From a virus, in the UHGV virus genome UHGV-0075042: 42,328 nt of DNA. One strand, given 5' to 3'. The position numbers and the translations under genes were made by a program. Below, one piece after another: positions 4,081-41,000 of this stretch (position 1 is the first letter of the stretch; the number at the start of each line of letters is the position of its first letter). The notes below the pieces were generated by a model. That model saw only the letters and a program-made list of their open reading frames with translations, made no database searches and was not told where the DNA came from.

Positions 4081-5844
4081 TCATACACTTGTACCATCCG
4101 CCCTCTTCCATTCAGATGATACTGTGTTATACCATATTGGAAGACCTAGCGTTGTATCATAATACATCTGCCCACTGACTGGTGCTGTAGGGCGCTGCGC
4201 AGTAGATCCACGGTTTTGATAAGTCGTCTGAGTATCATTAACACCTAGACAAGCTATAATACGATTTTTGCGCTCTTCCGATGTATTAAGGTAAATCTTG
4301 GTCGTCATATCGCTATCGAAAGAAACGCCATTGATGGTTATGCCGTTACAGTTATCGGCGGGGTCTGTGATCCCAAGTGGTTGCACGTAGTATCCACCTC
4401 TGATATAAGACGTACCCATAGAGCCGCCAATAACAGATATTTCTTTACAGTTTACCAACGATAGCCCACCAGTCTTATTTCCGTTGAATATATTATTAGA
4501 CAAAGAACATTGTTCAGCATTTTCCAATACCATGCCGAACTCACCACAGTAAGTGATAGTGTTTCCCGTAAATGTTAGATTTCTTGCCCCTTTAATATTA
4601 ATTCCACGACTATTGTTTATCCTCCCTGCACTAATAATGTTACCGCTGATGGTAGCGTAAGCCAGACTCTCCATATCAAAAGCAGTACCGTTGATGGCAT
4701 CAAAAACGCTATTTGAAATTATAACCGGATAACCCGCGAATTGGTCTGTTCCACCCATCTCACCAAGTGTTGTGCGTGTTCTTACCGCAAAATCTCCAGC
4801 AAACATTGAGCATTCACTAATAAATAAATCGGCGGTATCCCATACGTCAATCGGAGAGTTAGAACTGAAACACATAAGAAACTTAGGTGATTCGCTGATG
4901 AACTCCACAGTATTTAAATCCGCACGCCCCAAGAATGGACTACCCCAACGTTCGCACCGGAAGAAGTTAACGTAATGGTAGTTGTTCATAGTAGTTTGTG
5001 CGTTATAGAAAAACACCCGATCAAACTCTAAGTTCTGGACATGACGACAAACAATCCAGTTAATCAGCACGTCGGATGATATGACTACATCTCGGAATAT
5101 GCCACCCTGTTTCCACTGACTAGCAGCCGGGCCAGACCCTGTAAGGGTAAACATAGTGAAGGTTGAATCAGAACCTAGATATTTAATCTCTGGATTTTTT
5201 GCGTTACCAATAATTTCATATTTTGCTGGAAGCTCAATGTCTCTGGTCTTCATTCCATATATGCCAGAACCTTTCAAGTGAATTTTTCTTGCGCCTGAAG
5301 CGAATGCCTTCTGAAAGGCTATGCTATTATCTGTTGTTCCAGAATCATCTTTGCCACCAAAGTCTTCCAAAAATACAAAATCATCCAGCTTTTCTTGTAC
5401 ATTCCTGAAGACAGCACCATCAACAACAGATGGTAATCCATACTTATACTTTACTGTTTCAGGGAATGCCCCGCTTGCAAACTCTCCCTCTAGCTCCTGC
5501 CGGAACTGGTCCGGGTCATACTTGAGAATGTTTGGATAGTAGAACTGCTGTGTGCCATATGCGTCATACACAGCCATTGAATGTCCCTGTACGGTAACGA
5601 ACTTTGCAATCTGTCCGTTATATACCGGATAACCAGCAGCGTTAATGATGATTGGTTGCGAAACAGGAACGTGAGAGCCGTCTTCGTTCTCTACATAAAC
5701 CTGAATCTGGTTTTCAGGATTTACCGGGTCAGTGTCAATTTTACCGATATAAATTTTGCCATTGGCAACGGCTTTAAAAGAACGCGCCATAGTGAAGAGT
5801 TGCGAAGGCATGCTTACCACAACATTGGCTGTAATGTCTGTCAT
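4081..5844 (-). CDS. Tailspike protein (P22-like N-terminal head-binding domain plus distinct beta-helix receptor-binding domain)
   Basis: 587 aa; N-terminal ~110 aa ([13 protein letters not shown]...[21 protein letters not shown]...[13 protein letters not shown]) matches the conserved head-binding domain of P22/Sf6-family tailspikes as recalled; remainder is Gly/Asn/Ser-rich, beta-helix-like. Confidence 0.85.
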
Positions 5845-37248: not shown

Positions 37249-37499
37249 GTAATTCAGCACGACTACAGCTTGGTTTTTCACCGCTATCAAAAACTATCAT
37301 GCTGGCAAAAATGCGCGATGTTGAAGGTGGACGTATGCGCGTTGGCAATGATCCAGGTCGTGATGTTACCAATGAGGCTGCTCAATTGGTGTGGCGACTG
37401 GTCATGGCTGAAGGTGGTGAGATCGCGTGGGATCTGGATGATGGTTCTCGCATGGTGTTGAAGGCAGAAAAGCAGGAGGCAACCAGTGAGCAAGATTGA
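37245..37499 (+). CDS. Hypothetical early protein (84 aa)
   Basis: GTG start with AGGAGG 6 nt upstream; the longer 91-aa frame starts at an upstream GTG. Confidence 0.5.
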
Positions 37500-38037
37500 T
37501 TATCAGGCACTGCGTGCTAAGGCAGAAAAAGCAACGTGTGGCGAGTGGTCGCTCGAATATGGAGAGGGCCGATTTGATGGTGATGATGCGCTAATTCATC
37601 GCGAGGCTGCTGGATATATTCCCATTTGCAGAATTGAAGGAGCGCATCCTGAAAGCGGTTTCGATGAAGATTTCCAAATGGAACAGCAGGCCAATGCTGA
37701 ATTCATCGCTGCAGCCAATCCGGCTACCGTGCTGACACTACTGGATGAACGGGAAAGAAACCAGCAGTACATCAAACGCCGCGACCAGGAGAACGAGGAG
37801 ATTGCGCTTACGGTTGGGAGGCTGCGCGTTGAGCTTGAGGCAGAAAAACAGCGGGCAAAGGATCTGTTTATGGAAAATGCTCGGCTTAAGTCAGGTATAG
37901 CCGGTCTGATACACCTCGGTATTCGATATGCAGATGTTGAGGTCATGAAAATTGCTGGAGATGCCCAGCTTTCTACCCCATGCACTGACAGCATCATAAA
38001 CAGCATTGCAACAGGCATTCGCATCAAAGGAGAGTGA
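37486..38037 (+). CDS. Ea22-like protein
   Basis: 183 aa (lambda ea22 is 182 aa by recollection); coiled-coil central region. Confidence 0.65.
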   Translation: MSKIDYQALRAKAEKATCGEWSLEYGEGRFDGDDALIHREAAGYIPICRIEGAHPESGFDEDFQMEQQANAEFIAAANPATVLTLLDERERNQQYIKRRDQENEEIALTVGRLRVELEAEKQRAKDLFMENARLKSGIAGLIHLGIRYADVEVMKIAGDAQLSTPCTDSIINSIATGIRIKGE

Positions 38038-38239
38038 TATGAGCAGGAATACGGGTTTGTAAAAGATAACACTTGTGAAAATGCTGAATTTCGCGTCGTC
38101 TTCACAGCGATGCCAGAGTCTGTAGTGTCAGATGATGACCGTACTCAAACATCGGGTTGAGTATTATCTTACTGTTTCTTTACATAAACATTGCTGATAC
38201 CGTTTAGCTGAAACGACATACATTGCAAGGAGTTTATAA

Positions 38240-38521
38240 ATGAGTATCAATGAGTTAGAGTCTGAGCAAAAAGATTGGGCGTTATCAATGTTGTGCAGAT
38301 CCGGTGTCTTGTCTCCATGCAGACATCACGAAGGTGTTTATGTAGATGAAGGTATAGATATAGAGTCGGCATACAAATATTCCATGAAGGTTTATAAGTC
38401 TAATGAAGACAAATCCCCATTCTGCAATGTGCGAGAAATGACTGATACCGTGCAAAATTATTATCACGAGTACGGTGGAAACGATACTTGCCCTCTCTGT
38501 ACAAAACATATAGATGATTAA
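38240..38521 (+). CDS. Ea8.5-like Cys-rich protein
   Basis: 93 aa with paired Cys/His (CRHHEG...CPLCTKH), same position and size as lambda ea8.5. Confidence 0.6.
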   Translation: MSINELESEQKDWALSMLCRSGVLSPCRHHEGVYVDEGIDIESAYKYSMKVYKSNEDKSPFCNVREMTDTVQNYYHEYGGNDTCPLCTKHIDD

Positions 38522-38579
38522 ACCAAATATTACATAACAATCCTCGCACTCGCGGGTATTTCTTTTATATGGGGATAAT

Positions 38580-39113
38580 ATGACCATCCACTTTCACGGC
38601 AGCCCAATATGGGGTGATGAGCATGCCCCTACAGATATGCTTATTAAAGCCCTTTACCGTGATAGTGGGGCTTTTGTTTCATTTGCCAGACCAGAGCAGA
38701 TGAAAAAGATTGCCATGTTCCCTTGTGATATACGCCTTGATAACGGCGCTTTTAGCGACTGGATGAAAGCATTAAAGAAAGGCACTCCGGTAGACTGGAG
38801 TAAGAGACGAGCAAAATTCTACGACTTTGTTGGGAAGTGGTTCAGCAGAATTGAATGGTTTCTTATACCTGACGTTATCGAAGGGACAGAGGCAGAAAAC
38901 GACGAGCAGATTGAGTTGGTTCCTGATTGGCTAAAATCAAAAGCGGTTCCGGTCTGGCATACGACGAATCAATTGAACGTCTTTTACGCCTTTCTGGAAA
39001 ATTTGAATGGGTGGCGATTGGATGCTGCGGCCCACACAGGCACATACGCTCTAAATGGTGGGAACAGAGAATGGATGAAGTTTTTACTGAGATTTATATC
39101 AATCGTAATTTGA
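38580..39113 (+). CDS. Hypothetical protein (177 aa), frame A of an overlapping pair
   Basis: ORF with no counterpart at this position in lambda; its last ~60 codons overlap frame B. Confidence 0.5.
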   Translation: MTIHFHGSPIWGDEHAPTDMLIKALYRDSGAFVSFARPEQMKKIAMFPCDIRLDNGAFSDWMKALKKGTPVDWSKRRAKFYDFVGKWFSRIEWFLIPDVIEGTEAENDEQIELVPDWLKSKAVPVWHTTNQLNVFYAFLENLNGWRLDAAAHTGTYALNGGNREWMKFLLRFISIVI

Positions 39114-39379
39114 AAGTGAAAATTCATGGTCTTCGAATGCTCGACGTGAGAGTTCTTGGTATGTATCCGTTCGCCAGTGCGGATTCTACTAATGTTGCTG
39201 TTAACGTACCGAAGACAGAGAAGCGATTTCCTGAGATTACCGACAAACTGGCACGTACAGCTGTACTTCGCGCTGCTATTGAAAAGGTGCATCCGCCATC
39301 GATATCAGCATGGGTAGACAGAAAGATGAGAGAGCCGGCGCAAGCCGGTTTTTTATTTGAATTCACCGACGCCGCTTAA
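39071..39379 (+). CDS. Hypothetical protein, frame B (102 aa from first ATG; frame open from 38927)
   Basis: Second long frame overlapping frame A; either a separate gene or the 3' part of a frameshifted gene. Confidence 0.45.
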   Translation: MDEVFTEIYINRNLKVKIHGLRMLDVRVLGMYPFASADSTNVAVNVPKTEKRFPEITDKLARTAVLRAAIEKVHPPSISAWVDRKMREPAQAGFLFEFTDAA

Positions 39380-39436
39380 TGCGGATTTCTTTTATCTGAA
39401 CTCGCTACGGCGGGTTTTGTTTTATGGAGATGATAA

Positions 39437-39604
39437 ATGCACTTCCGAGTCACAGGTGAATGGAATGGAGAACCATTCAACAGAGTTATCGAAGCCGAGG
39501 ACATCAACGACTGCTATAACCACTGGATGATATGGGCGCAGATAGCACATGCAGACGTAACCAATATTCGAATTGAAGAACTGAAAGAACACCAAACCGC
39601 CTGA
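39437..39604 (+). CDS. Small protein (lambda orf55-like)
   Basis: 55-aa hand-read ORF directly upstream of xis. Confidence 0.45.
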   Translation: MHFRVTGEWNGEPFNRVIEAEDINDCYNHWMIWAQIAHADVTNIRIEELKEHQTA

Positions 39605-39616
39605 TGGCGGTTTTTT
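39595..39616 (+). terminator. Intrinsic terminator upstream of xis
   Basis: AACCGCC-TGAT-GGCGGTT hairpin followed by TTTTTT. Confidence 0.5.
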
Positions 39617-39643
39617 CTTGCGTGTAATTGCGGAGACTTTGCG

Positions 39644-39862
39644 ATGTACTTGACTCTTCAGGAGTGGAACGCTCGCCAGCGACGCCCAAGAAGCCTTGAA
39701 ACAGTTCGTCGATGGGTGCGCGAATGCAGGATATTCCCTCCTCCGGTTAAGGATGGAAGAGAGTATCTGTTCCACGAATCAGCGGTAAAGGTTGACTTAA
39801 ATCGACCAGTAACAGGTAGCCTTTTGAAGAGGATCAGAAATGGGAAGAAGGCGAAGTCATGA
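39644..39862 (+). CDS. xis: Excisionase Xis (lambda-type)
   Basis: 72 aa, MYLTLQEWNARQRRPRSLETVRRWVRECRIFPPPVKDGREYLFHESAVKVDL matches lambda Xis. Confidence 0.95.
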   Translation: MYLTLQEWNARQRRPRSLETVRRWVRECRIFPPPVKDGREYLFHESAVKVDLNRPVTGSLLKRIRNGKKAKS

Positions 39863-40910
39863 GCGCCGGGATTTACCCCCTAACCTTTATTTAAGAAACA
39901 ATGGATATTACTGCTACAGGGACCCAAGGACGGGTAAAGAGTTCGGATTAGGCAGAGACAGGAGGATAGCAATCACTGAAGCTATACAGGCCAACATTGA
40001 GTTATTTTCAGGACACAAACACAAGCCTCTGACAGCGAGAATCAACAGTGATAATTCTGTTACGTTACATTCATGGCTTGATCGCTACGAAAAAATCCTC
40101 GCCAGCAGAGGAATCAAGCAGAAGACACTCATAAATTACATGAGCAAAATTAAAGCAATAAGGAGGGGTCTGCCTGATGCTCCACTTGAAGACATCACCA
40201 CAAAAGAAATTGCGGCAATGCTCAATGGATACATAGACGAGGGCAAGGCTGCGTCAGCCAAGTTAATCAGATCAACACTGAGCGATGCATTCCGAGAGGC
40301 AATAGCTGAAGGCCATATAACAACAAACCCTGTCGCTGCCACTCGCGCAGCAAAATCAGAGGTAAGGAGATCAAGACTTACGGCTGACGAATACCTGAAA
40401 ATTTATCAAGCAGCAGAATCATCACCATGTTGGCTCAGACTTGCAATGGAACTGGCTGTTGTTACCGGGCAGCGAGTTGGTGATTTATGCGAAATGAAGT
40501 GGTCTGATATCGTAGATGGATATCTTTATGTCGAGCAAAGCAAAACAGGCGTAAAAATTGCCATCCCAACAACATTGCATGTTGATGCTCTCGGGATATC
40601 AATGAAGGAAACACTTGATAAATGCAAAGAGATTCTTGGCGGAGAAACCATAATTGCATCTACTCGTCGTGAACCGCTTTCATCCGGCACAGTATCAAGG
40701 TATTTTATGCGCGCACGAAAAGCATCAGGTCTTTCCTTCGAAGGGGATCCGCCTACCTTTCACGAGTTGCGCAGTTTGTCTGCAAGACTCTATGAGAAGC
40801 AGATAAGCGATAAGTTTGCTCAACATCTTCTCGGGCATAAGTCGGACACCATGGCATCACAGTATCGTGATGACAGAGGCAGGGAGTGGGACAAAATTGA
40901 AATCAAATAA
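39840..40910 (+). CDS. int: Integrase Int (lambda-type tyrosine recombinase)
   Basis: 356 aa, MGRRRSHERRDLPPNLY...RDDRGREWDKIEIK matches lambda Int almost throughout as recalled; overlaps xis 3' end as in lambda. Confidence 0.97.
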   Translation: MGRRRSHERRDLPPNLYLRNNGYYCYRDPRTGKEFGLGRDRRIAITEAIQANIELFSGHKHKPLTARINSDNSVTLHSWLDRYEKILASRGIKQKTLINYMSKIKAIRRGLPDAPLEDITTKEIAAMLNGYIDEGKAASAKLIRSTLSDAFREAIAEGHITTNPVAATRAAKSEVRRSRLTADEYLKIYQAAESSPCWLRLAMELAVVTGQRVGDLCEMKWSDIVDGYLYVEQSKTGVKIAIPTTLHVDALGISMKETLDKCKEILGGETIIASTRREPLSSGTVSRYFMRARKASGLSFEGDPPTFHELRSLSARLYEKQISDKFAQHLLGHKSDTMASQYRDDRGREWDKIEIK

Positions 40911-41000
40911 TGATTTTATTTTGACTGATAGTGACCTGTTCGTTGCAACAAATTGATAAGCAATGCTTTTTTATAATGCCAACTTAGTATAAAAAAGCAG
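40911..41000. other. attL junction (P' arm, 15-bp core, bacterial B arm)
   Basis: Core TTAGTATAAAAAAGC at 40984..40998 (reverse complement of lambda core GCTTTTTTATACTAA), preceded by lambda P'-arm sequence and followed by host sequence leading into ybhC. Confidence 0.8.

Follow-up and report, generated by a model that had tools for sequence, protein, structure and literature searches.

The stretch of DNA analysed here, referred to as the window, comprises 42,328 nucleotides of the virus genome UHGV-0075042. It carries ea8.5, orf55, xis and int in a lambda-type layout, followed by an att core, with ybhC located beyond the core. These neighbours identify the window as a prophage at attB-lambda, with the early-left operon read towards int. 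The features of the locus are as follows.

38240–38521, + strand: ea8.5 (Pfam Lambda_ea8_5)
38556–38568: left copy of a 13-bp junction repeat, inside a weak hairpin with T-run (38543–38568) after ea8.5
38571–38575: putative ribosome-binding site GGGGA of the dpdA-like gene, 3′ of the 38543–38568 element
38580–39379, + strand: whole dpdA-like gene, an allele of HK106 gp29 with a 1-nt deletion (HK106 match and PHROG 887)
39329–39360, + strand: terminator-like hairpin and T-run in the 3′ end of the gene (folding energy)
39383–39395, + strand: right copy of the 13-bp junction repeat, where lambda homology resumes
39437–39604, + strand: orf55 (lambda-type layout)
39644–39862, + strand: xis (lambda-type layout)
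39840–40910, + strand: int (lambda-type layout)
40984–40998: att core GCTTTTTTATACTAA

The open reading frame listing gives two frames on the + strand between ea8.5 and orf55. ORF A (38580–39113) starts at ATG and encodes 177 aa; ORF B (38927–39379) starts at TTG and encodes 150 aa. Frame B lies at –1 relative to frame A, with a TGA at 38924–38926 immediately before it and the stop codon 39377–39379 at its end. The initial annotation had estimated the overlap of the two, in different frames, at about 190 nt, and we measured it as 187 nt.

In BLAST, the lambda match on the ea8.5 side extends to 38568, and a second match starts on the orf55 side at 39383, the two blocks having 13 lambda bases in common. 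The net extra DNA relative to lambda is therefore 827 bp (38569–39395), located between ea8.5 and orf55 and bounded by a 13-bp direct repeat with 12 of 13 positions identical (GTATTTCTTTTAT at 38556–38568 and GGATTTCTTTTAT at 39383–39395); lambda has one copy. Synteny with lambda thus bears out the earlier description of the segment as cargo inserted into the early-left operon, with no lambda counterpart. The same description spoke of extra genes: the insertion stands and the plural does not, as only one extra gene is present.

Homology to phage HK106 begins at 38534, upstream of the left repeat copy, and includes the upstream hairpin and T-run, indicating that this element travels with the dpdA-like gene. 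Since the segment shared with HK106 begins at 38534, T-rich junction sequences bound the unit that phages exchange, and these short junctions look like the recombination joints of a dpdA module.

Several further features of the prophage were observed. An ea22-like ORF of 183 aa (within 37486–38239) has a full match to the Pfam Ead_Ea22 domain, PGAP flags the gene as partial (‘missing C-terminus’) in two genomes with the same prophage, and a 200-nt stretch lacking any ORF of at least 30 aa lies between it and ea8.5; it is possible that a second gene, adjacent to the dpdA pseudogene, has decayed here. The window contains a single lambda att core (40984–40998). At the far end of the window there is a second integrase with an Arm-DNA-bind_3 domain (1–1158), and a P22-type tailspike with a Head_binding domain is encoded on the – strand (4081–5844). 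The tailspike and second integrase point to a P22/lambda mosaic, with the other att site outside the window or another element abutting the prophage.

One gene with a missing base

Comparison with intact relatives indicates that the two overlapping frames are the halves of one 266-codon gene, their overlap being the signature of a single-nucleotide deletion rather than a product of chance. The parts of the broken gene are arranged as follows.

38580–39113, + strand: ORF A, native residues 1–128 (including D54, D98 and H127), then 49 out-of-frame codons and TGA
38962–38963, + strand: deletion site by alignment with HK106, where intact CAT ACC GAC (H-T-D) reads CAT AC- GAC
38927–39379, + strand: ORF B, native from codon 129 (GAC, 38963–38965) to the stop, including H183, G184-L185 and the nucleophile D202

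Matches to PHROG 887 run end to end, with ORF A residues 1–135 covering profile positions 10–142 and ORF B residues 12–150 covering positions 135–318, so that the two frames are consecutive parts of one family. In HK106 the same gene, gp29, is a continuous coding sequence of 801 nt encoding 266 aa, with 98% nucleotide identity to the window. Exactly one gap separates the two: GGCATACCGACG in HK106 corresponds to GGCATA-CGACG in the window, the Thr128 codon ACC having lost a C at 38962/3, and this divides the window copy into two ORFs. Apart from this single-base gap, the coding sequences differ by 15 substitutions, 10 of them synonymous. Re-insertion of the C restores a 266-aa protein with five residues different from HK106 gp29. 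Both genes stand directly before orf55-xis-int, in the same position, and have an identical terminator hairpin within them; on their other side the window has ea8.5, whereas HK106 has a DUF4752 gene and a small ORF.

The initial annotation had offered two explanations for the overlap, a gene of about 270 aa disrupted by a frameshift or two genes with an unusually long overlap, and proposed that homologues be searched. Divergent homologues in large protein collections, down to about 25% identity, are all single continuous proteins of ~240–270 aa, which favours the former explanation. The two-protein form was found only in near-identical copies of the same broken allele, so the outcome that the initial annotation had named as refuting its reading, homologues split into two separate proteins with the same overlap, was not observed. 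RefSeq calls the ORF A product a hypothetical protein (WP_001544360.1), and PGAP annotates ORF B only from an ATG at 39071, also as a hypothetical protein (WP_001544359.1).

To place the lesion in the population, an 80-nt probe across the deletion site was searched against 5,426 complete E. coli genomes. It matched 79 of them: 68 carry the intact sequence (81 nt) and 11 are identical to the window (80 nt, with the deletion), so that the extra base is present in 86% of genomes with the locus. Across 841 nt, ten of the 11 genomes with the broken allele match the window at 100% identity, and their RefSeq annotation shows two ‘hypothetical proteins’ at the locus. In the two whose context we examined, FDAARGOS_1288 and ESC818, the same prophage with the same flanking proteins lies next to ybhC. 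Judged from the context of these two, all 11 deletions apparently belong to one prophage lineage at attB-lambda, and a single mutational origin of the broken allele is the simplest reading. The 177-aa product has a database cluster of near-identical sequences to itself (P0079, 32 members). Further fragments in databases (P0020, P0021, P0010 and P0008) represent different truncations or chimeras of the gene, which implies that it decays repeatedly. An intact copy was also found in NZ_CM135829.1, an assembly labelled E. coli DH5alpha, where the gene is unexpected; the strain may have been mislabelled or may have acquired a lambdoid prophage.

Relationship of the intact gene to phage DpdA

The supplementary data of Hutinet et al. 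(2019) list the HK106 protein YP_007151699 as a DpdA without preQ0 or G+ synthesis genes (PMC6884629). The gene was thus already catalogued, as HK106 gp29 and a singleton DpdA, and its inactivation by a 1-nt deletion is of an ordinary kind. A literature search linking HK106 with queuine or deazaguanine gave no matches in main texts, the link coming from those supplementary data. HK106 falls in the third group of that study, 76 phages that encode DpdA but no homologues for G+ or preQ0 biosynthesis and could rely on host preQ0; the authors noted that this singleton group may have diverged in function (PMC6884629). In the same work, DNA of Salmonella phage 7-11 contained dADG at 50 per million nucleotides (~0.02% of G), mycobacteriophage Orion, a DpdA-only phage whose host lacks preQ0 synthesis, had no modification, and deletion of dpdA from phage CAjan abolished dPreQ0 (PMC6884629). 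Pantoea phage MED16 is a further DpdA-only phage with dADG (PMC8306585).

The repaired window protein shares 57% identity with phage 7-11 DpdA over 89% of its length. Like the window phage, 7-11 has no preQ0 synthesis genes; it differs in having a ~90-kb genome with no synteny to the lambdoid prophage, and its dpdA is intact. Homology also extends to CAjan DpdA (DpdA1; dPreQ0 at about 32% of G). hhalign matched the family profile A3 to CAjan DpdA with a probability of 98.7% (E = 2.2e-16, 161 columns), and profile A2 gave 95.4%. The D-S/N-G-A-F-S and S-A/C-D-S motifs are aligned, and in full the corresponding pairs are LDNGAFS/LDSGAFS, VPVWH/LPCFH, KxHGLRM/KLHAFGI and PFxSADST/PWYSCDSS. CAjan DpdA and the window family both lack a CxCxxC Zn motif and a Pfam match. 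They share only about 19% identity, and in CAjan genes for FolE, QueD, QueE, QueC and a transporter lie beside dpdA, whereas the window phage has dpdA alone.

Alignment of 65 family members revealed five invariant residues, D54, D98, H127, H183 and D202. These match Asp95/Phe99, Asp130, His181 and Asp256 of the S. Montevideo DpdA in order and motif. In the S. Montevideo enzyme, Asp95 acts as general acid/base and Asp256 as nucleophile (PMC10164549). The window copy separates D54, D98 and H127, encoded by ORF A, from H183 and D202, encoded by ORF B.

AlphaFold2, run with the 65-sequence alignment, predicted a TIM barrel of the TGT type (pLDDT 92.1, pTM 0.88), in which only residues 255–266 are disordered (pLDDT below 50). 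Foldseek matches in the PDB do not discriminate among TIM barrels. Against the BFVD viral models there were 26 matches with E < 1e-3, all from phages, and every named one is a ‘queuine tRNA-ribosyltransferase’.

Searches with established models returned little. Pfam had no match for either half or for the repaired protein, and NCBIfam and PADLOC had none for the repaired protein. A PDB sequence search with the repaired protein and the family profile gave nothing meaningful. Among 76 diverse relatives, Pfam found no TGT match, detecting fusion partners only. Aligning the family with E. coli Tgt in hhalign gave no significant match (probability 0.5%). None of 153 retrieved proteins with an [SC][AC]DS-type motif has a CxCxxC after the nucleophile Asp, whereas CDCYTC occurs in E. 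coli Tgt at residue 302. Bacterial DpdA (S. Montevideo, PDB 7UI4) and the tRNA-guanine transglycosylases are larger (375–413 aa) and have a CXCX2CX22H Zn site as well as the insertions Ins1, Ins2, Ins3 and Ins8, and bacterial DpdA also depends on the DpdB ATPase; the repaired window protein, by contrast, has 266 aa, no Zn motif and no detectable sequence match to E. coli Tgt. From these sequence comparisons we assign the intact gene to the singleton group of phage DpdAs, as a putative DNA guanine transglycosylase of the TGT superfamily, rather than to bacterial DpdA or TGT sensu stricto.

Gene neighbourhoods and fusions appear to agree with a role in 7-deazaguanine and DNA metabolism. In Pectobacterium phage PEAT2 and Vibrio phage PS25B.1 the homologue lies directly beside a gene for a YhhQ/preQ0 transporter, and in Caulobacter phage DMCA it adjoins QueD. 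Single polypeptides fuse the domain to QueD/PTPS or to Dam or D12 adenine methylases (P0006, P0125, P0195 and P0008). We also observed that the transporter genes of PEAT2 and PS25B.1 overlap the start or end of the homologue (L008:1037–2262; L006:2995–4228). One chimera has a hydrophobic N-terminus, which we presume may be transporter-derived.

The intact family might have the TGT fold and yet act on tRNA, on a protein like the CBASS protein Cap10, or as a glycosylase, instead of inserting preQ0 into DNA, a reading compatible with the window copy being a pseudogene. We consider this unlikely. CAjan DpdA, to which the profile match is strong and includes both catalytic motifs, is a validated DNA enzyme, and the DNA methylases, QueD and preQ0 transporters encoded next to or fused with the homologues suggest a connection with 7-deazaguanine and DNA. 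The negative result for Orion is explained by a host that makes no preQ0. We therefore favour a DNA-directed DpdA, and infer that the intact gene would insert preQ0 or another 7-deazaguanine into DNA.

Terminator hairpins and predicted function

The hairpin and T-run that the initial annotation placed inside the 3′ end of frame B were confirmed at 39329–39360 by folding energy against shuffled sequences. The stem-loop (39329–39354) reads GAGAGCCGGC-GCAA-GCCGGUUUUU, with the GNRA loop GCAA, and precedes the T-run. It folds with –17.7 kcal/mol (z = –4.4), an energy reached by none of 200 shuffles. It lies within the coding sequence, 23–50 nt before the stop codon, and encodes the C-terminal tail (...REPAQAGFLFEF...), which is disordered in the model and not conserved in the wider family. 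HK106 has exactly the same hairpin sequence. An unrelated terminator hairpin closes the PEAT2 homologue, with the stop codon in its loop. On the simplest reading, the dpdA module brings its own terminator, which translation here incidentally passes through.

The + strand has a series of four terminator-like hairpins, each with a T-run, at 38543–56, 39329–54, 39398–417 and 39594–613, the last being bidirectional. The region 37400–40000 as a whole has eight terminator-like sites against 1.7 expected and no promoter-like site against 4.6 expected. An Rfam search of the whole window found nothing. The serial hairpins would block non-antiterminated transcription from reaching xis and int. As the dpdA-like gene has the same orientation as ea8.5, xis and int, and the region holds no promoter-like site, expression from pL is expected: after induction, N-antiterminated pL transcription would read through the flanking terminators.

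The enzyme encoded by an intact allele would then swap guanine in replicated phage DNA for preQ0 supplied by the host FolE/QueD/QueE/QueC pathway. The predicted mechanism is a double displacement, with Asp202 as the nucleophile forming a covalent Asp202–DNA intermediate and Asp54 serving as general acid/base. The resulting 7-deazaguanine marks could blunt restriction of the phage DNA, as such modification protects other DpdA phages from restriction (PMC6884629).

Fate of the window allele

In the window copy, the loss of one C from codon 128 takes translation out of the native frame after Thr128, through 49 junk codons, to the stop at 39113. The predicted product lacks barrel strands β6–β8, H183, G184, L185 and the nucleophile D202, and the second ‘ORF’ is the still-open native frame of the C-terminal half. 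A protein without β6–β8 and the nucleophilic Asp should have lost activity, which would make the gene a recent pseudogene in a resident prophage. We regard it as very probable that the locus holds one early-left accessory gene, a minimal phage DpdA without a Zn site, turned into a pseudogene by a recent 1-nt deletion.

Three other accounts of the split were weighed. No assembly error is commoner than a single-base indel, and apart from the frameshift the gene shows no damage, which would suit a gene that is really intact and a frameshift that is an artefact. Such an error is very improbable here: the deletion recurs in 11 complete E. coli assemblies that were deposited separately, with various submitters and sample sources (USA and Japan; human and milk), the site is CC to C and not a long homopolymer, and the 177-aa product has a database cluster of its own. 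Programmed –1 ribosomal frameshifting or transcriptional slippage could in principle yield the full-length enzyme from a frame B that is frame A minus 1 and open across the whole overlap, and one X XXY YYZ heptamer (A AAT TTG) occurs in frame A at 38999. To produce the native protein, however, the shift would have to fall between the His127 codon (38958–38960) and 38963, where CAT ACG ACG is not slippery. The heptamer, the only one in frame A, lies 36 nt downstream of the lesion, and a shift there would give 12 wrong barrel residues; slippage upstream of the lesion, at a Lys codon (TCA AAA G, 38937–38943), would replace the invariant PVWH. Intact alleles have the same heptamer without needing it, most genomes with the locus simply have the extra base, and the homologues are single-frame. 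No homopolymer of at least five bases was found by scanning within about 120 nt of the lesion, leaving no run suited to RNA polymerase slippage. The earlier suggestion that the overlap be inspected for a slippery or homopolymer site thus led to a plain mutation at the break, and recoding is scarcely credible.

The two products might instead both be functional, either as a split enzyme of two half-barrels or with the N-terminal fragment in a new role. Both frames are indeed open, and beyond the deletion the few, mostly synonymous substitutions relative to HK106 gp29 show little other change. The split form is, however, limited to what is apparently a single, nearly clonal lineage of prophages, and no divergent homologue has it. 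Of the 177 residues of ORF A, 49 are junk, and ORF B can start only at TTG or a distant internal ATG, and no Shine-Dalgarno sequence was recognised by eye before either start. The different truncations in databases likewise speak for repeated decay rather than selection. We consider it highly unlikely that both fragments are made in an induced lysogen and function there, whether as a split TIM-barrel DpdA or through a stand-alone 177-aa fragment. If they did, this fragment, keeping the base-binding D54, D98 and H127 without the nucleophile, would be a candidate preQ0-, guanine- or DNA-binding factor. Decay of a single dpdA gene remains the preferred interpretation.

As a case of ordinary gene decay, the finding is mainly of value for annotation. 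Clustering at 50% identity gives about 2,147 representatives of the DpdA-like family, for which there is no Pfam or NCBIfam model, so PGAP names its members ‘hypothetical protein’ and cannot flag the frameshift. WP_001544360.1 and WP_001544359.1 should be merged and flagged as a dpdA pseudogene. The natural intact and broken alleles (68 and 11 in the 5,426 genomes, together with HK106) would provide a comparison for a lone DpdA of a temperate phage that may modify DNA with host preQ0, a subject under discussion for singleton DpdAs since 2019.
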